Shown piece by piece: positions 1 through 54,206 of a stretch of DNA of 64,000 bases. The stretch lies in contig CM059432.1 in NCBI GenBank assembly GCA_030390025.1, forward strand, positions 94,304,001 through 94,368,000, in the 5' to 3' direction. The stretch comes from Squalus acanthias. Taxonomy: Eukaryota. The first letter of the stretch is position 1, and each line of letters begins with the position of its first letter. The notes beneath the pieces were generated by a model, which saw only the letters and a program-made list of their open reading frames with translations, was not told where the DNA came from and searched no databases. The translations under genes were made by a program, and so were the position numbers.

Positions 1-1017
1 ATGAATACTCATGGTGGATCTGGGGGTGCTCGGATTGCCACGTGTGTGCAGTCGATGACACCCTGCACCTGTGGGAAGCCAGCCAGAGACGCAAACACGA
101 GCGCCAGCTCATTCTGACTGGTATCATCAGAGGCGAAGTCACACAATTGCCGACCCTGGCAAACAACAAATCAGTCATTTTCGTTATGCATTTGTGAGCC
201 GCCGGCTGGGAGAGCCTGGATATGTCTCCGGCAGAGCCCTAGAAGGATCTGGAGGCAAAACAGTTGAGGGCGGTGTGACAGCCACTGGTAATGCGTGGCC
301 ACCAGGTCCAGCAGGGAGCAGGTCTTCTTCTAGGAGGCTGCAGATGCCTGCCACCACCTGACGCGACAACCTGATCCTCCGGAGGCACTGCTGTTCCGAC
401 AGGTCAAGAAAGCTCAGCCTCTGCCTGTACACGCTGTTTCGCGGGTAATGCCTCCTGCGAGCTGCACCCCTCTGCTGCTCCCTTCGCAGATGTCCAGCTG
501 CAGATCTGTCAACAGCAGGCTGTCGCTGCTGGTGCTCCCGCTCTGTGTTGTTCAGCTCCAGGTCTGTCAAGGGCAGGCTGTGGCTGCTGGTGCTGGTCAT
601 GTTGCTCCTCATCCAAGGACCAATCTGAGGCAGCCAAGGCGCCACCCACCTTGATCTGATTCAGAAAACCTCCAAAGTGTAGAAAGTAAACTCTCAGCAA
701 AAGTACTGTGAACAAACCCTTTCCCACTAGTAGGTAAGAAATTAGCTGTGAGCACTGGGTATCTATTAAAGTATTTGCATCACTTTTAATCAGCCCCGTC
801 AATTGCCATTATATTCTCGCCTTGGTTTCAATGGCGAGTTTCAGAACGCCTGGGAAAGCTGTGGATGCGCCGTTTATCCTAGGGGGTTGCGCACAACCGA
901 GTTAAACGCGGAGGCCGGTGCGTTGGAACTGTCTTCCAGACACACTTGCATTTTTGCCAACTGTAATAACCCACCCGCACCTAATCCCACATGGTTCTCC
1001 ATGTTAAAATTCCACCC
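1..1017 (-). mobile_element. PIF/Harbinger DNA transposon, one end plus N-terminal half of a decayed transposase (runs off the window start)
   Basis: Minus-strand translation gives [33 protein letters not shown] (ORF 184..645). After a frameshift it reads FASLAGFPQVQGVIDCTHVAIRAP, the HARBI1-type first catalytic Asp motif, followed by a stop. The terminus GGGTGGAATTTT ends at 1017 and is followed by TAA. Confidence 0.85.
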
Positions 1018-1295
1018 TAAGTGTCTGGGGATGTCGGGAGGGTTGTTACAAGTCACTCTCCATTTGGGTATTTACACTTTCCAGGTGGTGGCTCAGCAAG
1101 TGACCTCAGGCCCTGACCACTGTCATCACTTACATGTGGCAGGTGAACAAGGAGCAAGCAGTGGCGGTCCCAGTGGGGGAGATCCCGAGGGAAATCATAG
1201 GCCTAACCGCCCAATATGTCCAAGAATTTCCACAGCAATCTTGCCCCAGTTTTCTCATTTGTAGCACCAGAAACCCAATCTGGAGGGTTCTGGTG

Positions 1296-4200
1296 TTTTT
1301 TTTTATTCGTTCATGGGTTGTGGGCGTCGCTGGCAAGGTCAGCATTTATTGCCCATCCCTAATTGCCCTTGAGAAGGTGGTGGTGAGCCGCCTTCTTGAA
1401 CCGCTGCAGTCTGTGTGGTGAAGGTATGGAGTTCCAGGATTTTGACCCAGTGACGATGAAGGATCGCCGATTACTTCCAAGTCAGAATGGTGTGTGACTT
1501 GGAGGGGAACTTGGAGGTGGTAGTGTTCCCATGCGCCTGCTGCCCTTGTCCTTCTAGGTGGAAGAGGTTGCGGGTTTGGGAGGTGCTGCCGAAGAAGCCT
1601 TGGCGAGTTGCTGCAGTGCATCTTGTAGATGGTACACACTGCAGCCACGGTACGCCGGTGGTGGAGGGAGTGAATGTTTAAGGTGGTGGATGGGGTGACA
1701 ATCAAGCGGGCTGCTTTGTCCTGGATGGTGTCGAGCTTCTTGAGTGTTGTTGGAGCTGCACTCATCCAGGCAAGTGGAGAGTATTCCATCACACTCCTTA
1801 CTTGTGCCTTGTAGATGGTGGAAAGGCTTTGGGGAGTCAGGAGGTGAGACACTCGCCGCAGAATACCTAGCCTCTGACCTGCTCTTGTTGCCACAGTATT
1901 TATGTGGCTGGTCCAGTTAAGTTTCTGGTCAATGGTGACCCCCAGGATGTTGATGGTGGGGGATTCGGCGATGGTAATGCCGTTGAATGTCAAGGGTCGG
2001 TGGTTAGACTCTCGCTTGTTGGAGATAGTCATTGCTTGGCACTTCTGTGGCGTGAATATTAATGTGGGCATGGACTGCTTCATTATCTGAGGAGTTGTGA
2101 ATGGCGCTGAACACTGCAGTCATCAGCAAACATCCCCATTTCTGATCTTATGTTGGAGGGAAGGTCATTGATGATGCAGCTCAAGATGGTTGGGCCTAGG
2201 ACACTGCCCTGAGGAACTCCTGCAGCGATGTCCTGGGCTGTGATGATTGACCTTCAACCACCACAACTATCTTCCTTTGTGCTAGGTATGACTCCAGCCA
2301 GTGCAGCATTTTCCCCCCGATTCCCATTGACTTCAGTTTTACTAGGGCTCCTTGATGCCACACTCAGTCAAATGCTGCCTTGATGTCAAGGACAGTCACT
2401 CTCACCTTACCTTCGGAATTCAGCTTCTTTGTCCATGTTTGTAGCATGGCTGTAATGGGGTCGGGAGCCGAGTGAGCAGGTTTTTGGTGAGTAAGTGCCG
2501 CTTGATAGCACTGTCGATGACACCTTCCATCACTTTGCTGATGATTGATTGACTGATGGGGCGGTAATTGGCCGGGTTGGATTTGTCGTGGTTTTTGTGG
2601 ACCAGACATACCTGGGCAGTTTTCCACATTGTCGGATAGATGCCAGTGTTGTAGCTGTACTGGAACAGCTTGGCTAGAGGTGCGGCTAGTTTTGGAGCAC
2701 AAGTCTTCAGCACGATAGCCGGGATGATGTCGGGGCCCATAGCCTTTGCTGTATCCAGTGCACTCAGCTGTTTCTTGATATCACGTGGAGTGAATCGAAT
2801 TGGCTGAAGACTGGCTTCTGTGATGGTGGGGACCTCAGGAGGAGGCCGATATGGATTATCCACTCGGCACTTCTGGCTGCAAACGCTTCAGCCTTGTCTT
2901 TTGCACTCACGTGCTGGGCTCCACCATCATTGAGGATGGGGATATTCATGGAGCCTCCTCCTCCCGTTAGTTGTTTAATGATCCACCACCATTCACAACT
3001 GGATGTGGCAGGACTACAGAGCTTTGATCCATTGATTGTGGGATTGCTTAGCCCTGTCTATAGCATGCTGCTTCCGCTTTTTAGCATGCATGTAGTCCTG
3101 TGTTGCAGCTTCCCCAGGTTGGCACCTCATTTTTAGGTACGCCTGGTGCTGCTCCTGGCATGCTCTTCTACACTCCTTATTAAACCAGGGTTGGTCCCCT
3201 GGCTTGATGGTAATAGTAGAGTGAGGGATATGCCGGGCCATGAGGTTAGATTGTGGTGGAATACAATTCTGCTGCTGCCCCACAGCGCCTCATGGATGCC
3301 CAGTTTTGAGCTGCTAGATGTGTTCTGAATCTATCCCAGTTAGCACGGTGGTAGTGCCACACAACACGATGGAGGGTGTCCTCAGTGTGAAGACGGGACT
3401 TCGTCTCCACAATGACTGTGCGGTGGTCACTGCTACCAATACTGTCATGGACAGATGCTTCTGCGACAGGTAGAGGATGAGGTCAAGTGGGTTTTTCCCT
3501 CGTGTTGGTTCTCTCACCACCTGTCGCAGGCCCAGACTGGCAGTTATGTCCTTTAGGACGCGGCCAGTAGTGGTGCTACCGAGCCACTCTTGGTGATGGA
3601 CATTGAAATCCCCCACCCATTCTGTGCCCTTGCTACTCTCAGTGCTTCTTCCAAGTGGTGTTCAACATGGAGGAGTACTAATTCATCAGCTGAGGGAGGG
3701 CGGTAGGTGGTAATCAGCAGGAGGTTTTCTTGCCCATGCTTGACCTGAACCCATGAGACTTCATGGGGTCCGGAGTCAATGTTGAGGACTCCCAGGGCCA
3801 CTCCTTCCCGACTGTATACCACTGTGCCGCCACCCCTGGGACAGGGCATACCCAGGGATGGTGATGGAGGAGTTTGGGGCTTTGGCTGAAAGGTATGATT
3901 CTGTGAGTATGACTATGTCAGGCTGTTGTTTGACTAGTCTGTGGGACAGCTCTCCCAATTTTGGCACAAGTCCCCAGCTGTTGGTGAGGAGGACTTTGCA
4001 GGGTTGACTGGGCTGGGTGTGCCGTTGCCATGTCCGTAGCTGGTGCCGAGGTCGATGCCGGGTGTTCCGTCCAGTTTCATTCTTATTATTGTGTTTCGTA
4101 GCGGTTTGTTACAACTGAGTGACTTGCTCGGCCATTTCAGAGGGCAGTTAAGAGTCAACCACATTGCTGTGGGTCTGGAGTCACATATAGGCTAGACCAG

Positions 4201-4436
4201 GTAAGGACAGCAGTTTTTCTTCCCTAAAGGACATTAGTGAACCATTTGGGTTTTTACGACAATCCGATAGTTTCATGGTTACTATTACTGCTACTAGCTT
4301 TTTATTCCAGATTTATTTAATTAACTGAATTTAAATTCCCCAGCTGCCGTGGTGGGATTTGAACTCACATCGCTGCATCATTAGTCCAGGCCTCTGGATT
4401 ACTAGCCCAGTGACATTACCACTATGCTATCGTTCC
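1296..4436 (-). mobile_element. Single-ORF non-LTR retrotransposon (APE endonuclease + RT, probably CR1/L2 group) with tRNA-derived 5' end; decayed copy
   Basis: Frameshifted minus-strand ORF pieces carry PDIVILTESYL, TTYRPPS, GDFNVHH, EPTRGKNPLDLIL, KAMGPD, NPANYRPIS, LDIKAAFD and YKAQVRSVMEYS. The 3' end reads AATAAATGC...GAATAAAAAAAAA. The 5' end has A and B boxes, and there is no room for an ORF1. Confidence 0.9.
4355..4429 (-). promoter_or_regulatory. tRNA-type internal Pol III promoter (A box and B box) at the LINE 5' end
   Basis: Minus strand has A box TAGCATAGTGG (4429-4419) and B box GTTCAAATCC (4364-4355), starting about 7 nt from the element 5' end. Confidence 0.75.
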
Positions 4437-5819
4437 ACTTTAACTGTATTAGAATGGAGGTCATTGTCTTGCAATATATTCAGCAGCATGTCTGCTATGG
4501 CTGTGGAACAACTGATCCTGGTCCTTACATTTAAGTATGTTAAACACGTTGTTCCTGGAGGTTTGAACACGTTACAGGATCCCTTTTCAGTTTCAGTTTG
4601 TCCTTGAATTTGTACTGTGCAAATGTTAGCTTACAATTACTTAATTTATTTAGAGTTAATTGCTTTGCCTGCTATTTTAATGAAGACATTAACTCATGGG
4701 CCACCTCCAGAATGTGATTTCACACCATCTGGAGTTTGCACTGTGTGCAGTATAATTCCAACCTGGTACAAAATCCTATTTTTAAATTGGTCCACAGAAC
4801 CTCCTAGAAACTTTAGAAACTTATTTTTCCATCTTTTTGATGTTATGAAAAAGTGAGTGTTCCCATCCGTGTTCTCCTAACATTAACCATTACTTGCCCA
4901 GGGAGTATCTAAACATACATGCTCAGAGGTCCTTCGACATAGTTGGCATAGCTGGCCCTATAACTCAGGATGACTGAGTCTCGGACTGTTTATATGTAGT
5001 TTGACTGCACCCTAAGATATTAATGTAGTCTGACAATGTTTGTACAAAAATCCTCAGCTTGACATTAATGAAACTGACAACAGTATCTTCTACAGAAATT
5101 GCCATCAGCCAATGATATCATGTAGCAATTGAAATATCCCTCATATCACTGTTAAAATGTCAACCTAATGCCTCAGACTTCTTTTCATTTGCTAATATTG
5201 TGAAATATTTCTGAAAACAACAGACACAATGATGCAAGTTGCATACTACCAATGAAAGTCCATATTTGATCCTGCATTTCACCAATGTGTTGGGATGTAC
5301 CATTATGTAATACTGAGTAATAAGATTTTGATGAGATGTTAACATATTAAAACATTCTAGATTTAGATTGTACATTAAGCATAAGCTGGCTGCATAATAA
5401 GCTTATAAACTGTTTTAGAAGCTTTTAATCTCTACATAGGTCTGTAGATGCTGCCGATTTGTGGTTGACTGAATTGAGCCTTGAGGGAGGTGCATCCGTT
5501 TACTGTAGACAATGGCTCCATAGTTCTTATCTGTTGTGAATCAGGGTACTCAGAGCTCTTTTGTAAGTACTGTCCTTCCATTAATCAACATTGAGGGAAC
5601 TACATACCTGCAGGAACCATGGAGAGTAACAGTTACTGTTTGCATCCTTCACATTTATAACTATTTTGTACGCCTACAGATTATCCAGTTAACAAATGCA
5701 CAACAAAAAGTGTTTTTTTGTAAAAGGAACTGCCAACTTTCTAGCATTGTAAAAATAAAATAAGCAGTAGGTGTCCATACTCTGGACACTAGCTGTGCTT
5801 TCAAGGTCTACACTACTTG

Positions 5820-6009: not shown

Positions 6010-9000
6010 TTCAGGGTCATCAGGAGGGGGAGGGCGAACAGCCAGTTGTCGTGGTGCACATAGGCACCAACGATATAGGTAAAAAACGGGATGAGGTCCT
6101 AAAAGCAGAATATAGGGAGTTAGGAGGTAAATTAAAAAAATAGGACCTCAAAGGTAGTAATCTCAGGATTGCTACCAGTGCCACGTGCTCGTCAGAGTAG
6201 AAATAGGAGGATATTTCAAATGAATACGTGGCTAGAGGAATGGTGCAAGGGGGAGGGATTCAAATTCCTTGGACATTGGAACCGGTTCTGGGGGAGGTGG
6301 GACCAGTACAAACGGGACGGTCTGCACCTGGGCAGGGCCGGGACCGATGTCCGAGGGGGAGTGTTTGCTAGTGCTGTTGGGGAGGGTTTAAACTAAAGTG
6401 GCAGGGGGTTGGGAACCTGAACAGGGAGACAGAGGAAAGGGAAACAAGGATAAAAGCAAAAGACAGGAAGGAGAAAAACAAAAGTAGAAGAACTCAACGG
6501 TTTAAATCAAACATGGTCACAGTAAATAATAATTCATATAGGTCTGAGAGCGTTAAAAAAACAAGCCTGAAGGCTTTGTGTCTTAATGCAAGGAGCATTC
6601 GGAACAAGGTGGATGAATGAGCTGCGCAAATAGAGGTAAATGAATACGATTTGATTGGGATTACAGAAACATGGCTCCAGGGTAGCCAAGGCTGGGAACT
6701 CAATATCCAGGGGTATTCAATATTTAGGAAAGATAGGCAAAAAAGAAAGGGAGGTGGGGTAGCATTGCTGGTTAAAGAGGGGAATTAACACAATTGAAAG
6801 GAAGGATAGTAACTCTGATGATGCGGAATCTGTATGGGTAGAACTGAGAAATAACAAGGGGCAGAAAACGTTAGTGGGAGTGGTATATAGACCTCCAAAC
6901 AGTAATACGGAGGTTGAGGACGGCATTAAAAGGGAAATCAGAGAAGCATGCAGTAAGGGCACAGCAGTCATCATGGGTGACTTTAATTTACATATAGATT
7001 GGGCTAACCAAATTAGTAAAAATACTGTGGAGGAGGAATTCCTAGAATGTTTACGGGATGGTTTTCTGGAACAATATGTCGAGGAACCAACCAGAGATCA
7101 GGCCATCTTAGACTGGGTATTATGTAACGAGAAAGGATTAATTAGCAATCTTGTTGTACGAGGCCCCTTGGGTCAGAGTGATCATAATATGATAGAATTC
7201 TTCATTAGGATGGAGAGTGAAGTAGTTGAATCAGAGACTAGGGTCCTGAATTTAAATAAAGGAAACTACGATGGTATGAGGCGCGAATTGGGTAGGATTG
7301 ATTGGGGAATGTCACTCAAAGGGTTGATGGTGGATAGGCAATGACAAACATTCAAAGACTGCATGGATGAACTACAGAATTTGTTCATCCCAGTGTGTCA
7401 TAAGAATAAAACAAAAAGGGTGACTCAACCGTGGCTAACAAGGGAAATTAGGGATAGCATAAGATCCAAGGAGAGGCCATATAAATTGGCCAGAGAAAGC
7501 GGTAACCCTGAGGATTGGGAGCAGTTTAGGATTCAACAAAGGAGGACAAAGGGATTAATTAAGAAGGGGAAAATAGAATATGAAAGTAAGTTTGCAGGGA
7601 ACATAAAAACTGACTGTAAGAGCTTTTATAGATATGTGAAGAGAAAAAGATTAGTGAAATCAAGTGTAGGTCCCTTGCAGTCAGAAGCGGGGGAAGTTAT
7701 AATGGGGAACAAAGAAATGGCAGACCAATTAAATGCAAAGGAGGACACAAATAACCTCCCAGAGATGTTGGAGAACATAGGGTCTGATGAAAGGGAGGAA
7801 CTGAAAGAAATCAGTACTTGCAGGGAAATGGTGTTAGGGAAATTGACGGGATTGAAGGCCGATAAATCCCCAGGGCCTGATAATCTACATCCTAGGGTAC
7901 TTAAGGAAGTGGCCCTAGAAATAGTAGATGCATTGCTGATCATCTTCCAACATTCGATGGAATCTGGAACTGTACCCATGGATTGGAGGGTAGCTAATGT
8001 TACCCCACTATTCAAAAAGGGTGGTAGAGAGAAAGCGGGGAATTACAGACCGGTAAGCCTGACATCGGTAGTGGGGAAAATGCTAGAGTCCATTATAAAG
8101 GATGTAATAGCTGAGCACTTGAAAAACAGTGACAGGATCGGACAAAGTCAACATGGATTTACAAAAGGTAAATTGTGCTTAACTAATCTACTGGAATTTT
8201 TTGAGGATGTAACTGGGAAAATAGATAAGGGAGAACCAGTAGATGTGGTGTATTTGGACTTTCAAAAGGCTTTCGATAAGGTCCCGCATAAGAGATTAGC
8301 GTGTAAAGTTAAGGCACATTGGATTGGGGGTAAGGTATTGACTTGGATAGAGAACTGGTTGGCGGACAGAAAGCAGAGAGTAGGAATTAATGGGTCTTTT
8401 TCCGAGTGGCAGGCAGTGACTAGTGGGGTACCGCAGGAATCGGTCCTTGGACCCCAGCTATTCACAATATACATTAATGATCTAGATAAGGGAACTAAAT
8501 GTAATATCTCCAAGTTTGCAGATGACACAAAGCTGGGTGGACGTGTGTGCTGCGAGGAGGATACTGAGAAACTCCAGGATGATTTGGACAGGTTGGGTGA
8601 GTGGGCAGAAGCGTGGCAGATGCAATATAACGTGGGTAAGTGCGAGGTTATCCACTTTGGTGTCAAAAACAGAAAGGCAGACTATTATCTGAATGGTAAT
8701 AGATTGGGAGAAGGGGAAGTGCAACGAGACCTGGGTGTCCTTGTGCACCAGTCGCTGAAGGTAAGCATGCAGGTGCAGCAGGCGGTGAAGAAGGCAAATG
8801 GTATGTTGGCCTTCATAGCGAAAGGGTTTGAGTATAGGAACAGGGATGTCCTGCTGCAGTTGTACAGGGCCTTGGTGAGACCACACCTTGAGTATTGTGT
8901 GCAGTTTTGGTCGCCTTATCTGAGGAAGGATGTTCTTGCCATGGAAGGAGTTCACCGAAGATTCACAAGGCTGATACCTGGGTTGGCAGGAATGACGTAT

Positions 9001-9447
9001 GAGGAGAGATTGGGTCGATTGGGCTTATACTCGCTGGAGTATAGAAGAATGAGAGGGGATCTCATCGAAACATATAAAATTCTGACAGGTCTGGACAAAC
9101 TAGATGCAGGAAGAATGTTCCCGATGGTCCGAGAGTCCAGAACCAGGGGTCATAATCTAAGGATAAGGGGTAAGCCATTTAGGACAGAAATGAGGAAGGA
9201 TTTCTTCACCCAGAGAGTGGTGAACCTGTGGAATTCTCTACCACAGAAGGTAGTTGAGGCCAAGTCATTAAATATATTCAAGAATGAGTTAGATATATTT
9301 CTTAAAGCTAAAGGTATCAAGGGATATGGGGAGAAGGCAGGTACAGGGTACTGAGTTTGGATGATCAGCCATGATCTCATCGAATGGCGGGGCAGGCTTG
9401 AGGGGCCGAATGGCCTACTCCTGCTCCTATCTTCTATGTTTCTATGT
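6010..9447 (+). mobile_element. CR1 LINE, 5'-truncated within ORF1 (SGNH esterase part of ORF1, ORF2, 3' UTR)
   Basis: ORF1 end has HIGTND and DGLH motifs and stops at 6396. ORF2 has EN motifs (YRPP, GDFN, SDH) and RT motifs. The tail is (TTCTATGT)n. Confidence 0.95.
6511..9354 (+). pseudogene. CR1 ORF2 (endonuclease/reverse transcriptase), interrupted by stops and a frameshift; 7363..9354 still open for 663 aa
   Basis: Motifs KSPGPD, NYRPVSLTS, QHGF, YLDFQKAFD, GVPQESVLGP and FADD. Stops at about 6618 and 7342. Confidence 0.9.
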
Positions 9448-23012: not shown

Positions 23013-24055
23013 GGGCTGGATATTAACTCATAGGAGGGGAGGCTTCGAGTCAGGAAACCTGGAAGTACGGAGGCCAGATAGAATATCGGAAGGCGGAGCA
23101 GGGGGGAGATTAGAGGCCAGAGGCAAGATTGGAGGGCGGAGCTGGGGGGAGATCGGAGGCCAGAGGCAAGATTGGAGGGAGGAGTAGGGGGGAGATCGGA
23201 GGCCAGAGGCAAGATTGGAGGGCGGAGCTGGGGGGAAATCGGAGGCCAGAGGCAAGATTGGAGGGCGGAGCAGGGGGGAGATCAGAGGCCAGAGGCAATT
23301 TGGAGGCCAAAGGCAAGTTCGGAGAGCGGGGAGGTGGGGGGATATCAGAGGCCACAGGCAAGATCGGAGAGCAGAGCAGGTGGGAAATTGGAGGTCAGTG
23401 GCAAGATTGGGGTCCTGAGCGGGGGGAGATCGGAGGCCAGAGGCAAGATTGGAATCCAGAGCTGGGGGGGGGGGGGGGGCGGGGGGGGGGGAGGGTGAGA
23501 TCTGAGGCCAGAAGGCAGATCGGAGGCCAGAGGAAAGATTGGGGTCCGGAACAGGCAGGGTGATTTGAGGCCAGAGGCAATATCAGAGGCCAGGGTTGGG
23601 GGTAATTGGAGGCCTCGTGGAGGTGATTGGAAGCGTCAGAGTGGGCGGGGGGGGGAGGGTAGAGATCAGAAGAGTTGGGAGTAGATCGGAAGGGTCAGGG
23701 ATGTCCGACTGTGTTGGAGTTGATGAAGCAGGTAAACTGGATCCAGCAGGTAAGTGGAAAGGCACTTATCTTCTGTATCCAGCAGATCTCGCCTCCTTTT
23801 AGCCGCCTCGTTTCCTGAGGCTCGGAAAACTCAGCCAGCCAGGGTTAAATTTAAAATGGTGGTTAAATATGAGGCACGCAGCGTCATTGTAATATTTAAA
23901 TTGCCAACCAGCTCCTGGGAGGGTTTGGTTGACGGCACCCGTTAAAACCGGAAATGGGCGGGTTGGAGGCAAGTTGGGGTTGTGATTCAGATTTTTAACA
24001 TTTTAACATCCCACCTGACCCAAACCCGCCCATTTTTGGGGGTTAAAATTCCCCC
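23013..24055 (-). mobile_element. Harbinger-type MITE, family C copy 1, containing a G-rich minisatellite
   Basis: Termini GGGCTGGATATT / AAAATTCCCCC with TSD CAT. The right end is the reverse complement of the start of 60587-62284. Confidence 0.75.
23085..23595. repeat. About 43-bp G-rich minisatellite
   Basis: Unit GAGATCGGAGGCCAGAGGCAAGATTGGAGGGCGGAGCTGGGGG, repeated about 10 times and decaying to the right. Confidence 0.9.
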
Positions 24056-31875: not shown

Positions 31876-32412
31876 TTCATTCTCAAGATATGGGCATCGC
31901 AACAAGGCCAGCATTTATTGGCTATGCCTAGTTGCCTTTGAGAAGGTGGCGGTGGGTCTTCTTGAAGTGCTGCAGTCCATGTGGTGAAGATATTCCCACA
32001 GTGATGTTCGGTATGGAGCTGGAGGATAATTTGGAGGTGATGGTGTTCCTATGCACCTGCTGCCCTTGTCCTTCAAGGTGGTAGAAGTCGCGGATTTGGG
32101 CGGTGCTGTCGAAGAAGCCTTGGCGAGTTGCTGCAGTGCATGCTGTAGATGGTACACACTGCAGCCACAGTACGCTGGTGGTGGAGGGAGTGAACATTTA
32201 AGGCGGTGGATGGGCTGCCGATCAAGCGGGCTGCTTTGTCCTGGATGGTGTCGAGCTTCTAAAGTGTTGTTGCAGCTACACCTATCCAGGCAAGTGCAGA
32301 GTATTCCATCACACGCCTGACTTGTGCCTTGTAGATGGTGGAAAGGCTTTGAGGAGTCAGGAGGTGAGCCATTCACCGCAGAACACCCAGCCTCTGACTT
32401 ACACTAATAGCC
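31876..32412 (-). mobile_element. 3' fragment of the same LINE family as 1296-4436
   Basis: Aligns by eye to about 1305-1895, including the tail GCATTTATTG...TGAGAAGGTGG. Confidence 0.88.
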
Positions 32413-32817
32413 AGATAAATTTACTTGTCAGATAAATGTAGACATATGTGACTTTTCTTGAGAAAATGGCCATTTTCTGAACATTCTGCCAATTTGATAC
32501 TGTAGCTGCCAGCTCTTCAAAACCACCATCGTGACTAAATAAAAGTAGGGGCTTAAAATTCAATTAGGCATGAAAACCAACGCGGGGATCACGATGCACG
32601 ACCTTTGTGGTGCCTGCTAATTACCATGATTGCTGCGTTCAGCCCAGCGCTTAGCGCGTTGCCGAGTGGCTGAGCGCTCAGCAGGGGGCCAAAGATTGCT
32701 AGCTTTAAATAGAGCTAGCCTTCACTTCTTAAAGGCAGTCTGCACCTCTTAAAGGTGAGGTGCATTCTGCATTCAGCAGCTGCTTGAACTGCTTGTGAAG
32801 GCAACTGTGAGTGAATA

Positions 32818-34701
32818 ATGACTCAACAGGGCAGAGAAAGAGCCCCAAGGATCTCTGACGCAGCACTCGAGGCCTTAGTGTGGGGGTAGATAGGAGGAGA
32901 CAGATCCTCTACCCGCAGGGCACTAGGAGGCCCTCCAGACACACAGGAGAAGGCAGTGGAAGCAGATAGCTGAAGCGGTCACAGCTAGCAGTCTTACCCC
33001 GAGGACCTGGATCCAGTGCTGAAAGAAGGTCAATGACCTAACACGAGTGGTCAAGGTCAGTGAATGCATCGTCAAAAGCTGTCTCCCACCAACTGCACCA
33101 CTAGCCTCGCACACTGCTCAATGCACCACACCACCATCACTCACCTACCAACAATCTGTATCAATCACGACTCATACCTCACAGTCATAGCTTCATGTCA
33201 CCCTCATACACTTACCACTTCTGAAAGCCTCACACCCAGATCACACACCTTGCACAAACTGACAGCTATTCAACCATAACAGGCACATCACCCAAACACA
33301 TTGCACTACACTCACTGACACACTTCCCTTTCGCTTGCAGGCAAAGGTGGCTCATAATCGCAGGCAGTAGCAACTAACCAGCAGGGACAAGCCTACATGT
33401 CCTTACCCAGGTGGAGGATACTGTGCTTGACATCATTGGAGGAGCCGTCACGGAGGCCGTGGGGGACGGTGAGGCTGAAACCATTCAAGATGACGGTATG
33501 CTCATACCTAATCCTCCTTCTCACATCCCACTACCCCATCATCTCACAATCTCTTCTCACTGGCAAACTGCTGATGGTGTAAGCATGCACATGTTGCTTC
33601 TCCTCGCCTCCCGTCACCACAACCCTACCCTTGTGCCTTTCTCCTTTCAGATACCCAAGAACTCCAACCTGATGAGCCAGTGCAGGAAGAGGAGAGTGAT
33701 GGAGAAGAAGAGATACCGTCACTCGATATGACACTTGCAGGCACCAGCTCAGATATTGGCACTGCGTGGACTTTAGCGGGTAGTATAGAGGCAGGATCTG
33801 CATGTGGTGAGTCACCGGGCACGAGAGGCCTGCAGGAAAGAAGGGTAGCGAGGTCTCACACGAGTTCTGCTGCAGAGGACTCAGATGAGGACTTCGATGG
33901 GGCAGCCTACAGAAGAAGGCTGATGGGCATGCACACAGAAATGCTTGGTGCATTGGCAGGCCTGCCAGAAAGCCTGTTGTCACTGTCAAGGAACATGGAG
34001 GAGTCCAGCACCAACTTTGAACAGGGCTTTGCGCAGAGCTTGGAGCCCATGATTTCCAGGATGGAACTGATGGGCAGCTCGATTAGCGCACTTGCGGATC
34101 CAACAATGATGCAGTGTCTAATGGCCGATGTCTCAGCTTCCATAACAGCACAAGTGGAAGCGACCCAATGTCTGAGTACTACAGTGGAAGCTCAGACTTC
34201 TGTCATACAAGCTCAGACTGCTCTCATGCAGGCTCAGCTTGCTGCCATGCAAGCTCAGACTACTGCCATCGTTGCTGCGTTTACCAGTGTTGAAAGAGGC
34301 TTGCAAGATGTCACAGCAGTCCAGCAATTTGTCCTCCAACAGATTACTAGGATTGCTGTGGCGCCGCCCCAGCGGAGTGGCAGTGGCTCCGTGGAGCACG
34401 AACCTGCTGTCCTCTCTCAGGATGACAGTATTCGCCTTCCCACCACTCCGCCAGTGTCCTTTCTGTTGCCTGTCAGCCAGCTAGCCCAGACATTGCTGCC
34501 GCCATGCTGAGGTGGTGTCGTCCGCTGCCGGACCTTCTAGGCCTAGAGCTGCTCGAGGTCATCCTGCAAGGCCATCTGCAGTCTCTCCCACTGAAAGTCA
34601 GCAGCCTTGCTGCAGCCACTGGGGTAGCACTTCGTAGGAGCACTAGGACAGGCAAAGGCACACGTAAGACAGGCACTAAGGAAATGCACAAGGGTGATTA
34701 G
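32818..34701 (+). pseudogene. Harbinger Myb/SANT-like DNA-binding protein gene, three exons (32818-33055, 33341-33495, 33651-34701), disrupted
   Basis: Reads MTQQGRERAPRISDAALEALV...WKQIAEAVTASSLTPRTWIQC*KKVNDL. GT-AG introns have pyrimidine tracts. The last exon is acidic then coiled-coil-like (ORF 33680..34510). Confidence 0.75.
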
Positions 34702-34870
34702 TTGACTTTGTTATGTAAGATTGGATTCATTGATTTATAAATTTGGTTTGGAATGGTTGTTTTGTGGTGGCTTTCATTTCAGCTTTGTGGCCAAGCGGAT
34801 GCTGTGATGTTCCATGACAGATGGATGGTAAGGTGGGGAAGTGTTGAGCAATAGGGATCTGGGGTTTCAT

Positions 34871-35950
34871 TCAGGGGAACCGGAGTCTGATGATGCGCTC
34901 ACGGACAGCCCGTCCAGAATGTGTATGTGCAGGCTGCCTCCTCCCTTGCTCCTCCTCCTCCTGAGGTGGTCGTAGAACCCGTGGTGGCAAGGGCTGCACC
35001 CTCATGATAGCCAATTTGTGGAGGATGCAGCTGACCATCACGAATTGAGACACCTGCTCCGGCAAGTACTGGAGGGCTCCTCCCGAGCGGTCAAGGCAGT
35101 GGAACCATTGCTTCAGCACCCCGATGGTCTGCTTGATGACATTCCTTGTGGCAGCCATTATATGAGACTGGCCACGAGTGCTGGGGCTGCGGAGAGCAGT
35201 CATCAGCCATCTGTAAAGCAGATAGCCCTTGTCGCTGAGCAGCCACTCTCTGGTTTGACGTGGTGGCTAGAAGATTGCTGGCACAGCGGTCTGGTGCAGG
35301 ATGAATGCATCATGACTGCTGCCAAGATACTGGGCATTCACCAGCATGATGTGCTGGGCGTGGCCGCACACCAACTGCACATTAAGTGAGTGGTACCCTT
35401 TGTGGTTACGGTACATCTCATATTGAGATGAGGCGCTCGCAAAGCCACGTGTGTGCAGTTGATGGCACCCTGCACCAGGGGGAATCCTGCTATCCTGGCA
35501 AAGCCACGTGCACGCGCATCCTGCTTCTCTTTGTTTCGAGAGAAAGCAATGAGGTTCCCTCTCCTAGTGTACAGAGCCTCTGTGACTTCCCGGATGCAGC
35601 GATGGACGACAAACTGCGAGATGTTAGCTATCTCGCCTATTCCAGACTGGAAGGATCCTCTGGTGAGAAAATTCAGGGTCACGGTCACCTTGAGGGTCAC
35701 TGGCAGCGTGGTCGTCGCCCTGCTCTGAGGCTGCAGGTCTGGTTCCAAGAGGTGGCACAGTTCTGTGACCACCTCCTTGGTGAAGTGGAGCCGATGAACA
35801 CACTGCTTCTGTCTTAGGTGCAGGTAGGAGAAGTGGTCCTTGAAGACCCTCGGTGGGTAAGGCCTCCTGCTGAGAGCCCTCATCCTCCTCCTCCTTCTGC
35901 GAGCAGCTTGTCTTCTTTGCTGCCTCTGCTCCAGCTCCCTGTCATGCTGT
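34871..35950 (-). pseudogene. Harbinger (HARBI1-like) DDE transposase, frameshifted and catalytically mutated
   Basis: Motifs GFARIAGFPLVQGAINCTHV (D to N), WLLSDKGY and TRNVIKQTIGVLKQWFHCLDRSGGALQY (E to K). Confidence 0.88.
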
Positions 35951-38518
35951 GGCCCAGGGGGACTGCAACTAGAGCCCCCGTAACTGGGAGTAAGTGGTGT
36001 ACTCAGAGGCCTTCTCGTAGCCTTCCCAAAGTCCAGCAGCACTCCCTGCACACTTTAACTTTTGAAATCACTTACAGCAACCCAGTATCCCTACAAACTT
36101 TTCAAGAGCCAGTACAAAAGCAATAAGCAACATACCTGAAAGTTGGATATATCCCTTTAAGTAGCCCTGGTGGGGGTTCCCTCGTGCAGCTGAATGTGTG
36201 TGTTTAGGAGAGGGTGTTGAAGGGAGCATTAGAAAATGGCAGGTCGTGCATCAAATCAGCTTTACACGCTGACTGACGTCACGATCTGCCTACTGCATAC
36301 TGCCGGTGCACGCACATACCGCCCGCACCAAGATGGTGAACAGCACGGGCAGTGTTGGAAATGGGCGAACGCCATTTTTTTTAAATGCCAAAAGTACCGG
36401 CGCTACGGAGATGAATATCGCGGCTTACTTGTTTTAACCACAGTGGTTGATTCCTGAGTTTAATTTACACATGAAAGAAAGGAATGAGGAAATGTGCACG
36501 TGTAGCAAAAATAAAAGACATATAGAAAGTCAGACAACCTACATGGAAGGTAAAACACCTGGAGCTGTAGTGAAAATTGAAAATGCCTTCTCTCTCCGTA
36601 AAACACATGGATTTATTTATATATGTAACTGTGGTGTGTGAGGGAAACATATCATGGGTTAGAATTTCTGTAGGGGTTCTCGCCGTCTCCTGTCCCGAAT
36701 TTGGCAGGAGATCAGTGAAGCCCCGCAAAAATTGTACCTCTATTTATTTATCTACCTTGCAGTAGGTGAGGAATACACTATGGACCTGAAATTCCAGGGT
36801 GCCTGCTGCAAGTCTAGTTGGGTGTGTCTTCGGAATTCTGACAACTAAGGACATTGACTCTAACCTAAATCCCAGGATGGGGTCAGTTTAAAATCAGGCA
36901 GGTGGCAAGCACCTGCTGTGGCGTAACAGAGGCACTCATCCCAAATAGGTGCTGGAAAATCGCAGGGACACCCCTCTGGGATTGCTTACCTTTGTTGCTT
37001 GAGACATTTGGGGCTATGAGGAAAGCTCAGTATGTACGTTTGCTCTCAGCCGAAGGATGGCATATTGAGCAGAATTCCCAGGGCAACCCAGTAATGTTGT
37101 CCAGACTCACCCTCAAAGGTACCGACTGATAAAGACTATTCTCCCCCGGTTCATCGTGATTTCTGAAGAACCGTAAATGGGGTGGAAACCTGACGGATCC
37201 CAGTTTTGCCCAAATTCCTGCCATCCTGCGGGCGATCCTACTAACTTGCATCCACCCCAGGAGTTTCCAATTTATTTATTTTCGAAGCACTATGGAAAGA
37301 AAATAGGAATCTTCTTAGCCATCCATTTTCAGTAGGATCCTAAGAATTGGTGGTGAACTCGACATCTAGTAACTCCTCGGATAGGACGATCTGAGGTAAG
37401 TAAGTACCAACAGGTAAGCTGTTCTTCCAGGACCTATCAGATTTTTGAGGCTGGAGGTCTTCTAATTGCAACCATCAGTAAGACAGAAATAGAATCCATG
37501 TGGATAGAGATAAGAGATAAAAAAGGATCACTAATATGGGTAAGTCTACAGACCACCTAATAGTGGAAGGGAGGTGGAGAAAGAAATATGGAAACAAATT
37601 AGGGAGATGAGTAATAAACATAGAATAATAATCATGGGGATTTCAATTATCCTCAAATGAATTGGCCAAAAGAGGTAGGTAAACGGGATAAGGGAATGGA
37701 GTTCCTACAAAGTGTACAGGACTCCTTTCTAACCCAGTATGTAAGAAGCTCAACAAGGGAGGATTTGCTACTGGATCTGTTAATGGGGAATAAACCAGAG
37801 CAGATAAGAGAAGGAAAAGTAGATGAACGTCTCGGCATTAGTGACCATAATATTACGGTTAGGATAATAATTGAGAAGGACATATGCATGACAAAGACCA
37901 GGGTAATAGATTGGAGAAAAGCTGATTTTGAGGGGCTGAGAATAGAACTTGCAGAAATAAAATGGACAACAATATTGGCAAACAATGCTGTAGAACAGCA
38001 ATGGTATTCAGCAGAGCTCAGGAAAGATATATTCTGCTAAAAATCAAGAACTGAACACTAATGAGACATCACGGATGAATAAAGACATAAGGGAAAAATT
38101 GAGGGTAAGGAAAGGGACATACACTAAGTACATGGACAGCAGGGGAGAGCATGATGAGGGAGAATACGAAGCGATTAGGAAAGAAGTAAAAAAAAATTAG
38201 GAAGGCAAAGAGGAACTATGAAATTAAATTATCAAGGAACATAAAACAAAGTAGTAAAATATTCTACAGGCACATAAATAAAAAAAAGGTTAAGTCGGGA
38301 TGGGAATATGGCCACTAAGGGATGGACAGGATAAAATCACAGGTAGTGATAGTGAAATGACAGAAATATGAAATAATTATTTTGCTTTCGTATTTACTAG
38401 GGAGACAGTTGAGGTGGACATGACAGCAGAAAATGAGATTAGAAATGAGATAACTGCATTTAAAATAAAGAGGAGAAATATTAAATAAACTAATCAACTC
38501 AAAGAGGATAAAACCCCT

Positions 38519-40328
38519 AGGCTTAGAAATGCGATGCTTTAATGCTGGCTGTTAAGGCCAGTTTTGTAGAAAAAATGGCGGCCGCCTCGCTTCCTCCCAC
38601 TTCTGGTGCGGAACGAGACGGCCGCCACATTGAACAGGTCGGCAGCGCTGCTGTTGCCTGTGCTTGCCGCAAGTATTTTAATTACCAGGAGCGTGACATC
38701 AATCGGCGTGCAATTGACGCATGCTCTTCCATTTTAGAGCTCGCCGCTCCTCTTACTGCTCTCTCCAAAGCACGCCTGTGTGTGCAGCCGTTGACAGCGC
38801 ATAGAGCCGGGAGAAAGCGGCGGTGAGCTATAAACCCTACAGTAAACAGCTGCTGAGATAACTGGTAACTATGGAGAGCTCAGACTACGTATTTGGAGTG
38901 AAAACTGCTTCCAATGAGATGCATCAAATCTTCCCCGGTCAGTCATACATTACAAGAGGTAAATACTTTTAACATAAACTATACTGTACTACAGTTGTAA
39001 TAATCTCAGGAAAAAAATAAAACTGCATTTTCTCAAATTTTATACAATGGGTTTTCTAGTTTAGGGACTGATAAAATAAGATGCAAAGTTTGGAAGTCTG
39101 TTTTTAAAAGGCTTAACACCATATTCTCAGCAAGAGTTCTTCAAAAGTCTGCTGTTGTTAAAAATGTAATTGAACTCTTTTCTGCATGATTTACACCAGT
39201 AAATTCCTATTTTGAAATTTATTTCAATTGATTTCTCATGCAATGGTTTAAGGACATCTATGCCACAGTCTTTATGTGCTTTTTCTAGTCACAGTCTCTC
39301 CAGATCTGGCCTGTGCTTTAAGACCCACTCACCAGGGAGTGAATCCCCTATGTGATATGCAGGCTAGTGCACTTTTTTATTCATTCACGGGATGTGGATG
39401 TCACTGACAAGGCCGGCATTTATTGCCCATCCCTAATTGCAGAAGGTGGTGTTGAGCTGCCTTTTTGAATACAACTGAGTGGCTTGCTAGGCCACTTCAG
39501 AGGGCAGTTAAGAGTCAACCACATTGCTGTGGGTCTGGAGTCACATATAGGCAGATTACCTTCCCTAAAGGACATTAGTGAACCAGATGGGTTTTTACGA
39601 CAATCCGGTAGTTTCATGGTCACCATTACTGATACTAGCTTTTTAGTCCAGATTTATTTAATTATTTGAATTGAAATTCCCCAGCTGCTGCAGTGGGATT
39701 TGAACTCATGTGTCCGGATCATTAATCCAGGCCTCTGGATTACTAGTCCAGTAACATAATCACTATCCTGCCATACCGTACTGTCACTGCTAGCTGCAAG
39801 ACGGTGCATCCCCATCCCCCTCCAGCACCATGGTGGAGCACAAATCTCCACACAGCAACCATCTGGGTGGAACATTTGCGGACCTAAGGCAGCCAGTGAA
39901 GGTGGGAGTACCAGGCAGTCTGGTACTCAGTTGTGGACCCTACACAAGACCCAGACAAATGTCCAAGAAAGTAAGAGGGGGGGGCATGGACAAACAAATG
40001 CCTCTAATGTGCCACAACGGTCAATGTTCCAACCCTACAAGGGCCATCAGCAGACTCATACCTCCTGACCGAGCAAAACCCAGGAGCCGTCACCAAATGA
40101 TCTGAAACAGCACACTGCCCGAGAACGCTGCACCGATCCTTTAGACACAACCTTCGGCCTCCTGCTGAGGTTACCGCCGGCAAGAGTGCGTTGCACAAGA
40201 GATTCTGTGCTCTGCTTATGTAAATCAGCAGGCAGTATCGGTGCTGCCTGCGCTCTTTTTGCTGGCGGCCATTAACCTCGACGTGCGGTGGCACTGCCAC
40301 TTTTCGGCCTAATTGAATTTCTAGGCCC
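38519..40328. mobile_element. Non-autonomous Harbinger-type element inserted in CR1
   Basis: Termini AGGCTTAGAAAT / ATTTCTAGGCCC resemble the MITE at 10341. It interrupts the CR1 KTPGPD motif, and the TSD is unclear. Confidence 0.6.
39373..39781 (-). mobile_element. tRNA-headed SINE equal to the two ends of the LINE at 1296-4436
   Basis: 39373-39469 matches LINE 1296-1400 and 39470-39781 matches LINE 4110-4436. B box GTTCAAATCC is retained. Confidence 0.9.
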
Positions 40329-46300: not shown

Positions 46301-48267
46301 TACAGCAACTCAAGCTCCGGAGATTGAGCGGCGGCTGGAGTCACTGCGGTGCATCCGCGAGGCTGAGAGTTACGTGGATAGCACGTTTCTAGAGGTGGTC
46401 ACCCCGCAGCTTAAGAGTTTGCAGGCAGAGAGGGAATGGGTGACCACCAGACAGAAGAGGAGGACCAGGCAGATAGTGCAGGAGTCCCCAGCGTGTATCG
46501 CGCTCTCCAACCAGTATTCTGTTCTGAGTACTGGTGAGGGCGATGGTTCCTCTGGGGAGTGCAGCCAGAGTCAAGTCCATGGCACCACGGGTGGCTCAGC
46601 TGCACAGAGGGGGAGGAAAAAGAGTGGAAGAGCAATAGTGGTATGGGATTTGATAGTTAGGGGAGCAGACAGGCGTTTCTGCGGCCGTAGACATGACTCC
46701 AGGATGGTATGTTGCCTCCCTGGTGCCAGGGTCAAGGATGTCACTGAGCGGCTGCAGGACACTCTGAGGGGGGAGGGTGAACAGCCAGAGGTCGTTGTCC
46801 ATATTGGTACCAACGACATAGGCAGAAAGAGGGATAAAGTCCTGCAGGCAGAGTTTAGGGAGCTAGGAGAGACATTAAAAGCAGGACCTCAAAGGTAGTA
46901 ATCTCCGGATTACTCCCGGTGCCACGTGCTAGTGAGTACAGGATTAGGAAGATAGAACAGATGAAAGATTGGCTGGAGAGATGGTGCAGGAGGGAGGGCT
47001 TTAGATTCCTGAGGCATTGGGACCGTTTCTGGGGAAGGTGGGACCTGTACAAGCCGGACGGGTTACACCTCAACAGAGCTGGGACCAATATTCTCGCGGG
47101 GAGGTTGGTTAGTGCTGTTGGAGAGGGTTTAAACTAACTTGGCAGGGGGATGGGCACCAGCATATAGGAGTAGCAAAGAGGAATAAGGTGTCAAGGATCG
47201 CAAGCTTCAACAACTCTTGGACACCAACGCCCCTCCGGAACCTTCTTCCCCTTCACTTTCTCTGACCCCCCTTCTCCCAATCTCATCCCCTGCCGCGTTT
47301 TCACTATCCCCTCTGACCTTCCCCTCTCTGACTCCGAACGATCAGTCCTCAGCAAAGGCCTGAGCTTCATCCCCTTACACCCCCACCTCAATGAATTTCG
47401 AGCTCGGCACGATGCTGAGCTCTTTTTCCGCCGCCTCCGTCTCCGTGCCCACTTCTCTGGCCAGGAGTCTTCCCCCCGCACGGCTGACCCTTTCTCCCGC
47501 TTTCAGAATTCTCGTTCCACCTGGACCCCTCCCTCTGGCCTCTTACCCTCTCTAGATCTTTTCATTGCAAACTGCCGCCGTGACATTGGCCGTCTCCATT
47601 TCTCTGCTCCCCTCTCTCACTCCAACCTACCTCCCTCTGAACTTGCAGCACTCCATTCTCTCAGATCCAACCCCGACATTGTCATTAAACCTGCTGACAA
47701 GGGTGGTGCTGTTGTTGTTTGGCGAACCGACCTCTACCTAGCGGAAGTTGAACGCCAACTCTCCGACACCTCCTCCTACCTCCACCTGGACCATGACCCC
47801 ACTACAGAACATCAAGCCACTGTGTCCAAGACTGTCACTGACCTCATCTCCTCTGGAGATCTTCCCCCCGCGGCCGCCAACCTCATAGTTCCCCAACCCC
47901 GCACAGCCCGCTTCTACCTCCTTCCCAAGATCCACAAACAGGACTGCCCTGGTAGACCCATCGTTTCAGCCTGCTCTTGCCCCACGGAACTTATCTCTTC
48001 CTATCTCGATTCTATTTTTTCTCCCCTTGTCCAGTCCCTTCCCACCTACATCCGCGATTCCTCTGACGCCCTCCGCCACTTTAACAGTTTCCAGTTTCCT
48101 GGCCCCAACCGCCTCCTTTTCACCATGGACGTACAATCCCTCTACACCTCCATCCCCCACCAGGATGGCCTGAGGGCGCTCCGCTTTTTCCTTGAACAGA
48201 GGCCCGACCAGTCCCCATCCACCGCCACCCTCCTCCGCCTGGCTGAACTTGTTCTCACATTGAACAA

Positions 48268-48461
48268 TGTCGTAAGAATGAGCCTTACGCGTGGTGAACT
48301 TAAAGTAAGCTTTAATCAACTAAAAAGGTGCTACATACAAAAGAGGTCTTACTCTATGCCTCTCCAGGATCCAACTGCTCAGTCCAGTATTTATCCTGGA
48401 CTAATCACAGGAAGTGATGCAATAAAGTTCGAGTCACAGGAAGCTGTATTGTGTTACCACA
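48268..48461 (-). repeat. 3' LTR of Gypsy
   Basis: Identical by eye to 52515-52708. Confidence 0.97.
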
Positions 48462-48479
48462 TTCTCCCCCCCCAAAAGA

Positions 48480-52436: not shown

Positions 52437-52514
52437 GATGGGTGATTCCCTGGATCCTTAGTTCCGAGTTCGTCCAAAAAGTTTGAGTGCGAAGTTTTTC
52501 AAAGTTGATTAAAT

Positions 52515-52708
52515 TGTCGTAAGAATGAGCCTTACGCGTGGTGAACTTAAAGTAAGCTTTAATCAACTAAAAAGGTGCTACATACAAAAGAGGTCTTACT
52601 CTATGCCTCTCCAGGATCCAACTGCTCAGTCCAGTATTTATCCTGGACTAATCACAGGAAGTGATGCAATAAAGTTCGAGTCACAGGAAGCTGTATTGTG
52701 TTACCACA
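52515..52708 (-). repeat. 5' LTR of Gypsy
   Basis: Identical by eye to 48268-48461. It contains a TATA-like GATAAATA inside a 7-bp hairpin and ATTAAA on the sense strand. Confidence 0.97.
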
Positions 52709-54206
52709 AACAACTTCTCCTTTGACTCCACTCATTTCCTCCAAATCAAAGGTGTTGCTATGGGTACCCGCATGGGTCCTAGTTATGCCTGCCTTTTCGT
52801 GGGATATGTGGAACACTCTTTGTTCCAGTCCTACTCGGGTCCCCGACCTCACCTCTTTTTCCGGTACATTGACGACTGTATCGGTGCCGTTTCCTGCTCT
52901 CGCCCTGAACTAGACAATTTCATTCACTTTGCCTCCAATTTCCACCCTTCCCTCACCTTCACATGGTCCATCTCCGACTCTTCCCTCCCCTTCCTCGACT
53001 TCTCCGTCTCCATCTCTGGGGATAGGTTATTGACCAACATTTACTACAAGCCCACTGACTCCCACAGCTACCTGGACTACACTTCCTCCCACCCCGCCTC
53101 CTGTAAGGACTCTATTCCCTTCTCCCAGTTTCTCCGTCTCCGCCGCATCTGCTCCGACGATGCCACCTTCCATACCAGTGCTTCCGACATGTCTTCCTTT
53201 TTCCTCAACCGAGGATTCCCCTCTACCGTGGTCAACACGGCCCTCGACCGTGTCCGTTCCATCTCCCGCACTTCTGCCCTCACCCCGGCCCCTCCCTCCC
53301 GGAACCACGATAGAGTTCCCCTTGTCCTCACCTTTCACCCCACCAGCATCCACATTCAACGGATCATCCTCCGCCATTTCCGCCACCTCCAACGTGATCC
53401 CACCACCAAACGTATCTTCCCCTCACCTCCCCTTTCAGCATTCCGTAGGGACCGCTCCCTCCGAGACACCCTAGTCCACTCCTCTATCACCCCCAGCACC
53501 CCTTCCCCTTCACCCGGCACCTTCCCGTGCAAGCGCAGGAGATGCAACACCTGCCCTTATACATCCCCCCTTCCCACTCTCCAGGGCCCCAAATACCCCT
53601 TCCAGGTGAAACAGTGATTTACTTGTACTTCTTGCAATCTAGTATACTGTATTCGCTGCTCACGATGTGGTCTCCTCTACATTGGGGAGACCAAACGCAG
53701 ATTGGGTGACCGCTTTGCGGAACACCTCCGTTCAGTCCGGAAGGGTGACCCCGAGCTTCCGGTCGCTTGTCATTTTAATTCACCCCTCCACGCTCACTCA
53801 GACCTCACCGTCCTCGGCCTCTTGCATTGTTCCACGGAAGCGCAGCGTAAGCTCCAGGAACAGCACCTCATCTTCCGTTTAGGCACTTTACAGCCTTCCG
53901 GACTCAATATCGAGTTCAACAATTTCTGATCATAACCCCGGCCCCTACCACATATGTATACATTTTATCCACTCTTTTGGTCCGTGCCTTTTTCCTTTTT
54001 TTCTCTCTCCCCCCCCACGGCAGCTGTCTCTGATTCTGCCAGCATTTCACACCTTACCTTTTGTTTCTCAACCTGTCCCATTACCATCTCGTCTTGCCTT
54101 GAGCATCTCTCAATTTCTCTACTCACTAAAGACCATCCCTTTTGTTCTTTTATTCCTCCCCCCAGCCTCCCCCTTGCATTTTTATCTGTTTATTTCTTGC
54201 TCTCTC

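Follow-up and report, generated by a model that had tools for sequence, protein, structure and literature searches.

The window (the whole stretch of 64,000 nt analysed here) contains a worn copy of a LINE family that starts with a tRNA-like head bearing A and B boxes, encodes an endonuclease and a reverse transcriptase (EN-RT) in a single open reading frame (ORF), and avoids Pol III terminators along its coding strand. By every testable feature the family is a LINE; it resembles a SINE at the 5' end, and falls outside the definition of one. It is ordinary in its enzymes and unusual in its promoter end and its avoidance of T tracts. We show here the anatomy of the element, the selection acting on its ORF and the avoidance of terminators. 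A coding strand free of Pol III stop signals, together with a tRNA-type promoter, may correspond to a rare protein-coding RNA of Pol III. On balance, we lean towards reading the family as a Pol III-transcribed autonomous LINE, which would be translated independently of a cap from a non-AUG start.

Anatomy of the element

The copy at 1296-4436 is 96.7% identical to the family majority sequence (aligned columns), and its reading frame is broken by frameshifts and stops. Its features, and those of two related pieces in the window, are the following:

1296..4436, reverse strand: worn full-length copy of the tRNA-headed single-ORF LINE family (3,141 nt against about 3,313 nt in the family)
4352..4436, reverse strand: tRNA-like head; start of the element 7-8 nt upstream of the A box
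4419..4429, reverse strand: A box, fits the consensus TRGCNNARYGG; intact in 26 of 37 LINE copies
4355..4366, reverse strand: B box, fits the consensus GTTCRANNC; intact in 32 of 37 LINE copies
4112..4351, reverse strand: non-coding body common to the LINE and the short SINE, about 240 nt
4317-4312 and 4306-4301, reverse strand: two AATAAA motifs inside the body (+120 and +131)
1359..4108, reverse strand: EN-RT frame, broken in this copy; 973 codons in the family
start of 1359..4108, reverse strand: Arg/Lys-rich leader opening the EN-RT frame, about 37 codons
4097..4099, reverse strand: ACG, codon 4 of the frame and candidate non-AUG start; majority codon across copies
3934..4080, reverse strand: AUG-initiated 48-codon ORF in a different frame, overlapping the start of the endonuclease
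3400..3997, reverse strand: APE-type endonuclease domain, end approximate (PF03372/PF14529 on sister copies; catalytic columns conserved)
1940..2630, reverse strand: reverse transcriptase domain, limits approximate (PF00078 on sister copy L044; FADD at 2130-2119)
1296..1400, reverse strand: 3' tail common to LINE and SINE (last 13 codons, stop at 1361-1359, AATAAA at 1350-1345, short A tail at 1304-1296)
31876..32412, reverse strand: 5'-truncated family member (90.5% identity over 379 nt)
39373..39781, reverse strand: 0.4-kb SINE, head and body fused directly to the LINE tail

The body holds several AUGs, out of frame or blocked, and in this copy 41 nt separate the 3' AATAAA from the A tail. 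The A and B boxes that the preliminary description had placed at the 5' end are present, at 4429-4419 and 4366-4355. Against the Rfam tRNA model, the D, anticodon and T arms can be aligned within the first 85 nt of the element, which have a 22-nt insertion. The match is weak (23.4 bits, E 0.2, under the 29-bit cut-off; E 0.04 for copy L004), and ARAGORN called no tRNA. Full-length copies do begin at the tRNA head, with a start fixed 7-8 nt before the A box. A G stands at -8, -7 and -6 from the A box in 27, 32 and 35 of the 37 LINE copies, respectively, a profile that matches that of 16 SINEs, and a weaker A/C bias is found two places upstream of the starting G in LINE and SINE copies alike. 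A G at the 5' end may alternatively be a copied cap, as in L1. Judging from the boxes and the start site, the 5' end of the element may well be a type-2 internal Pol III promoter.

Head and LINE form one unit across the genome

We searched the 3.7-Gb genome with the 5' 541 nt of the element and obtained 6,990 candidates, of which 40 were scored. All 40 cover the head through the start of the endonuclease. Among copies taken from these 541-nt matches, the 20 that were extended all continue for at least 788 nt, and 14 reach the tail. Exact-motif counts were used to escape the selection bias of such similarity matches: a 29-nt head motif has 1,643 exact matches in the genome, and the reversed-motif control has none. 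The first 20 exact LINE-type head matches on contig C1 comprise 17 LINEs, one internally deleted LINE, one SINE and one interrupted copy, i.e., the motif continues into the LINE in 18 of 20 cases, the internally deleted one included.

The reverse test started from the RT and took 35 of 75 copies chosen by protein similarity (the top 20 by rank and 15 for their long open frames). Eleven reach the head (one displaced), seven end within positions 157-384, one was not placed, and 16 had no 5'-end match inside the 600 nt fetched. Eleven of these 16 copies were compared with one another, and they share no alternative 5' end. The junction between head and LINE is one and the same in all aligned copies, and the copies are dispersed, with a fixed 3' tail and variable 5' truncation. 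A second head variant has 3,375 exact matches in the genome; 20 sampled matches comprise eight SINEs, five older LINE copies and seven interrupted ones. Two of the older head-bearing LINE copies with this variant are 84-89% identical. By exact-match, extension and RT-first counts alike, the head is not an independent SINE that happens to lie beside a truncated LINE, the case in which the preliminary description would have failed.

Reading frame and selection

The majority sequence, built from 17 head-selected copies that are 95.5-97.9% identical to it (about 3% diverged), is 3,313 nt long. A single frame of 973 codons (329-3247) runs through it without a stop, and there is no space for an ORF1 upstream. 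The single EN-RT ORF without ORF1 that had been described for this DNA is therefore found in the 17-copy majority sequence, whereas the 1296-4436 copy itself is broken. Only endonuclease and RT domains were matched by Pfam on sister copies; the APE endonuclease and the RT lie in one frame and keep their catalytic residues.

Non-CpG variants found in at least three of the 17 copies include no stops and have a pN/pS of 0.31 (17 synonymous, 17 not), against 0.79 for singleton variants (p=0.011). Hence, the head-bearing source elements kept a working ORF. The pN/pS is 0.44 and 0.54 in the two older head-bearing copies. The ORF of head-bearing lineages is under purifying selection.

The lack of an in-frame AUG before the endonuclease adds to the earlier description of the element. 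The first in-frame Met is codon 287, past the endonuclease, and none of the six AUGs of the leader is in frame ahead of it. The AUG at 357 opens the 48-codon frame, which overlaps the endonuclease start out of phase. We saw no AUG hidden in a subfamily: the in-frame AUG302 is followed by one or two stops, except in rare single copies. The Arg/Lys-rich leader resembles those of the relatives P0002 and P0009, which begin with Met there. Codon 4 reads ACG in the majority of copies; the minor forms, ATG and ACA, are products of CpG decay. This ACG would be the best candidate for a start codon. We found no stable RNA structure at the 5' end (z=-0.45), and no ribozyme or IRES match in the element.

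Depletion of T tracts and Pol III terminators

The preliminary description had reported no TTTT on the sense strand over 3.1 kb, roughly 17 T4+ runs on the other strand, and several sense TTTT in the neighbouring element at 6010-9447, which we take to be a CR1. The counts bear this out: there is no plus-strand A4+ run in 1296-4436, there are 18 antisense T4+ runs (the 9-nt tail and 17 internal ones), and the neighbour has five sense T4+. The longest stretch without AAAA in the window is 1005-4769. The pieces at 31876-32412 (no T4 on either strand) and 39373-39781 had been brought in as further support, but they are not independent of the main copy, the former being a truncation of the same family and the latter the family's SINE.

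The absence of TTTT is less telling than it had seemed. It is significant in a base shuffle of the whole element (P=0.017), and not in a dinucleotide shuffle (P=0.21) or in codon shuffles, where 1.6-1.8 are expected (P=0.15 for synonymous, P=0.14 for codon-order shuffles). These shuffles retain the family's low use of TT, which is possibly itself a product of selection, and we therefore ran tests on wider sets of motifs, chosen after the TTTT result came out non-significant. In the accessible text of PMC3141230, human Pol III is terminated by T4, T2VT3/T3VT2, TVT3/T3VT and T2VT2, in order of falling strength, and not by an isolated T3. The sense strand has no T4, TVT3, T3VT or T2VT3/T3VT2 and a single T2VT2, against 8 TVT3, 14 T3VT, 9 T2VT3/T3VT2 and 19 T2VT2 on the antisense strand. 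All seven TTT of the family are isolated, against 17 of 27 in the CR1. For the set T4|TVT3|T3VT we observed 0 where synonymous shuffles give 4.3 (P=0.004), and for the full set 1 where they give 5.6 (P=0.009). The CR1 controls (12 pooled frames) also fall under their own shuffles (O/E 0.71-0.76, single copies to P<0.002), and correcting for this lowers the expectation to about 3 (Poisson P near 0.05). Under a second-order Markov null, P is 0.09 for the terminator set. Strong motifs number 5.1 per kb in CR1 frames and 0 in the 2.9 kb of the family.

The depletion extends to shorter runs. The o/e of TT is 0.71 in the family, versus 1.01-1.19 in 17 retroelement ORFs of the same genome (CR1, Penelope-like and Gypsy-like, labelled by eye); among 80 metagenome relatives, the 54 whose frames have 700 or more codons give 0.91-1.36. 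At synonymous Y sites (not before G), T is used in 74/256, 28/119, 2/37 and 0/1 cases for resulting runs of 1, 2, 3 and 4, with a significant drop to 2/37 where T would create TTT (p=0.002); in pooled CR1 the values are 57, 55, 49 and 38%. The A-, C- and G-rich analogues of the motifs and the pyrimidine tracts of the ORF show no depletion. Avoidance of splicing or of poly(A) signals was rejected as the reason for the loss of T, given that neither pyrimidine tracts nor splice donors nor AATAAA show depletion. Hazards of the Pol II type are tolerated, e.g., the AATAAA at +120/+131 and three GGTRAG donors.

The older copy L249 keeps the depletion (6 vs 15, P=0.003), and in the older copy L250 it is not significant (P=0.15-0.19). 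The ORF is T-poor overall (0.19) and C-rich, and the DNA examined held no head-less relative of this lineage that could show whether T-poverty came with the head. The terminator-depletion signal is real and specific; with composition taken into account, its strength is moderate. The selection for Pol III read-through proposed earlier is thus backed by the terminator-motif set and the depletion of TT, and loses the lack of TTTT, which codon use explains; for TTTT taken alone, one of the outcomes that the preliminary description had named as fatal to the idea has, strictly speaking, come about.

SINE derivatives and tails

The piece at 39373-39781 and 16 genomic matches consist of the head and body, followed at once by the LINE's final 13 codons and its 3' UTR. 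These 0.4-kb SINEs are 91.5-95% identical to their own majority, which has 11 differences in 318 positions relative to the head of the young LINE. In other SINE copies, LINE sequence extends to positions 241-347, the first codons included, and picks up again at 3169-3255. Such varied junctions, entering the ORF from both sides, favour repeated internal deletion of the headed LINE over a single capture. The 0.4-kb SINEs therefore appear to derive from the LINE by internal deletion, although later indels could explain part of the spread. Only these derivatives are short and non-coding; the LINE has 3.3 kb and 973 codons. The shared body presumably does not resemble the Deu domain (DeuSINE/SacSINE1), and we have not filed it there.

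Next to the short A tail are runs of T1-T10, with T4+ in eight of 30 tails. We considered these runs as traces of Pol III termination followed by polyadenylation and rejected this, since they reach T8-T10 as the A run shrinks, like slippage; they are most simply the outcome of slippage after insertion. Among the contigs of four sequencing runs whose RNA status is a guess, one X5 contig spans the body and the frame start, and many join the body to the tail. They only show that both LINE and SINE forms exist.

Relatives and clade

The best protein relatives are 40-48% identical to the family, and one of them is named, from Branchiostoma belcheri. The closest named protein match is an 83% fragment from the shark Heptranchias perlo, from which we take the genome to be that of a cartilaginous fish. 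The relatives have a single ORF of 930-990 aa on contigs of 3-5 kb, and this architecture seems general in the clade and not special to the family. RTE, Vingi and ZfL2-2/UnaL2 are also single-ORF APE LINEs, and the family is like them in having one EN-RT ORF and neither ORF1 nor RNase H. The metagenome relatives contain many T4 runs, and most have a Met near the start of the frame. None of the 17 that were scanned (of 80, on contigs that may lack the 5' end) has a tRNA-like match.

In a tree of 39 rows, a chosen subset of the matches, the family groups with unnamed invertebrate-type proteins and the Branchiostoma protein. Two rows labelled CR1 are set apart from both the family and every one of its relatives by a branch of 2.2 changes per column. 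This separate branch and the 25-32% identity between the family and the genome's CR1 RT rule out the CR1 clade proper. The Vingi/RTE type was also rejected: target-site duplications of those elements have several to about 15 bp, and at the flanks of 11 full-length copies of the family we found no adjacent repeat longer than 3-4 bp, nor was there a match to a 5' HDV-like ribozyme.

Transcription and translation

Transcription by Pol III, the cap status of the RNA and the route of its translation are inferred from the sequence features described above. TFIIIC and Pol III would initiate at +1 and transcribe the entire 3.3 kb, with termination at a T run located in the tail or the flank. Translation of the uncapped RNA would follow a cap-independent route, beginning either at a non-AUG codon close to where the frame opens, most plausibly the ACG at codon 4, or by re-initiation after short upstream ORFs. 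The EN-RT protein would bind the 3' tail and insert the RNA by target-primed reverse transcription, as is established for LINEs; new copies would often be truncated at the 5' end, and the target would be duplicated little if at all. The products of internal deletion would be able to act as ready-made SINEs, the promoter being already in place. It is an even call, in our judgement, whether all of this holds together as a long-lived vertebrate "coding SINE" lineage, with a 3.3-kb protein-coding RNA made by Pol III, an ORF recoded to shed terminators, translation of an uncapped RNA without AUG, and SINEs produced by internal deletion.

We give an appreciable but clearly smaller chance to a LINE transcribed by Pol II that has captured the front end of a SINE. 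In that case, its head would act as or contain an internal Pol II promoter, or be a passenger, the RNA would be capped, and T tracts would have been lost in a T-poor, C-rich lineage or under some other pressure on U-rich RNA. Codon use accounts for the absence of TTTT, the CR1 controls show a weaker lean in the same direction, and an AATAAA lies 41 nt ahead of the A tail. There are also precedents, in that 5' switching is described as common among LINEs in the available part of 10.1101/2022.11.04.512097 and Tx1-Mar LINEs bear U1/U2 heads without a Pol III promoter (PMC4494074, in part). Yet, the depletion is specific to T and to the strand, is graded by run length and fits the tested terminator classes, while the start site and boxes behave like those of SINEs. 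The two AATAAA inside the first 140 nt sit poorly with Pol II, and six leader AUGs, none in frame before codon 287, would impede cap-dependent scanning too.

We think it rather improbable that the two functions are split, i.e., that Pol III makes the full-length template RNA and that copies situated within host transcripts, read through by Pol II into capped RNA, supply the protein, which acts in trans on the common 3' tail. Such a system would explain the avoidance of terminators and dispense with translation of an uncapped RNA; no IRES-like structure was found, and the existence of the SINEs proves trans mobilisation of the tail. It leaves the missing AUG unexplained, and purifying selection on the ORF of head-bearing lineages would be easier to understand if the RNA that is copied is also the one that is translated. 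Chance adjacency, or recurrent template switching, of an independent SINE onto 5'-truncated LINEs deserves almost no credence and is refuted for this genome, in spite of the near likeness of SINE and LINE in their first 318 nt (only 11 majority differences), by the single fixed junction in all aligned copies, head letters specific to the LINE, the lack of any other 5' end common to copies, and the presence of the head in older lineages.

Comparison with known elements

Published accounts assign LINEs to Pol II, deny SINEs any capacity to encode protein and hold that the processivity of Pol III limits the length of its products (PMC5786205 and PMC10886601, in their accessible parts); this counts against the Pol III reading. 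A close precedent may be RTE-1_DAn along with elements related to it in Repbase, given as LINEs with a tRNA-like sequence in the available text of Kojima 2018 (PMC5786205). RTE-1_DAn matches many SINE2 elements because of this sequence. It is like our family in having a tRNA-like part within a LINE, and differs in belonging to the RTE clade; the comparison is with a brief description that gives neither the position of the tRNA part, nor the polymerase, nor terminators, and RTE-1_DAn may be closer than it appears.

Tx1-Mar LINEs and SINEU are also similar, a coding LINE having a small-RNA-derived 5' head in common with a partner SINE (available text of Kojima 2015, PMC4494074). The U1/U2 heads have no internal Pol III promoter, whereas the A and B boxes of our family are intact. 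According to the same text, most SINEU hold oligo-T, which its author takes as excluding Pol III, in contrast with the lack of T tracts in the family. Bov-tA, SINE2_Gav, SINE2-1_EC and SINE2-1_ACar resemble the family's SINE, with a tRNA head, a LINE 5' part and a LINE 3' part. However, in these bipartite-LINE SINEs the head is joined to a deleted, non-coding derivative, whereas here it is already present on the full coding element. In the accessible text, bipartite derivatives are traced to RTE, Ingi, Vingi and R2 only (PMC5786205).

The T+ SINEs B2, Dip and Ves (PMC8466645) and TRIMp3 (PMC10886601) are, in the parts of these articles available, retroelements with a Pol III-type promoter like the family. 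The T+ SINEs further resemble it in that a T run comes after AATAAA and grows longer next to a short A tail (PMC8466645). All four are non-coding and under 1.3 kb, and our family is coding and has 3.3 kb. In the literature covered we found no Pol III-transcribed autonomous LINE, nor this family, which may be catalogued in the subscription journals, Repbase or Dfam that lay outside this scope. The family sequence has no match in two supplement files of PMC4824008; a further file there and the supplements of PMC5499810 may contain sequences.

Significance

The division between LINEs and SINEs is one between coding RNA made by Pol II and short non-coding RNA made by Pol III. If the Pol III reading is true, a natural, selected 3.3-kb Pol III mRNA would break this rule, and the family would provide a tractable vertebrate case of cap-independent, non-AUG translation as well as a direct route from LINE to SINE. 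Even under Pol II, it would remain a coding LINE in high copy number that has a complete tRNA-SINE front end and is accompanied by a family of SINEs derived by deletion.

Other elements in the window

By eye, from characteristic motifs, three stretches were labelled as transposase remnants, which we take to be Harbinger/PIF-like:

1-660, Harbinger/PIF-like transposase remnant
33500-36050, Harbinger/PIF-like transposase remnant
60900-63500, Harbinger/PIF-like transposase remnant

When the AAAA-free stretches of the whole window were ranked, 33073-35667 came second in length (2.6 kb), and the longest TTTT-free stretch was 32472-34759. Given these two stretches, long AAAA- or TTTT-free gaps are possible in GC-rich elements without a Pol III head. 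A tandem-like GC-rich repeat at 23030-23580 has long open frames on both strands.

The long frames between 47 and 54 kb were the following:

47174-48568, plus strand, long frame, Penelope-like by eye, bordering the LTR-type frame
48483-52457, minus strand, 1,325-codon open reading frame without breaks
52673-53614, plus strand, long frame, Penelope-like by eye, the other bordering frame

The minus-strand frame, presumably an LTR-retroelement polyprotein judging by eye, served only as a composition control. A 187-nt repeat found at 48268-48454 and again at 52515-52701 (98% match to the genomic stretch L062) is probably its LTR pair.

Coding sequence of the family

Phenylalanine makes up 1.85% of the family majority protein, whereas its share in nine homologues is 2.3-3.6%; amino-acid usage may also have moved away from T-rich codons. 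Several invertebrate-type homologues (P0001, P0005, P0006, P0011, P0016, P0017) have their called start inside the endonuclease or just before it, and hence an upstream AUG may be absent elsewhere in the clade too.

Insertion sites and 3' tails

Several family copies are nested in other repeats, namely CR1, another SINE and a further member of the family in antisense orientation (flanks of the genomic stretches L037, L042, L050 and L183). The ends of these nested copies have at most 2-4 bases in common, and no target specificity was evident in these flanks.

The 3' tails of L152-L171 and of the full-length copies are short. Their T run is 1-10 long and lengthens as the A run shortens, which is why T4+ is now present in 8 of the 30 tails. 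Such a run would, from its sequence, provide the element with a Pol III terminator of its own at the 3' end, a predicted arrangement resembling the one reported in B2 SINEs.
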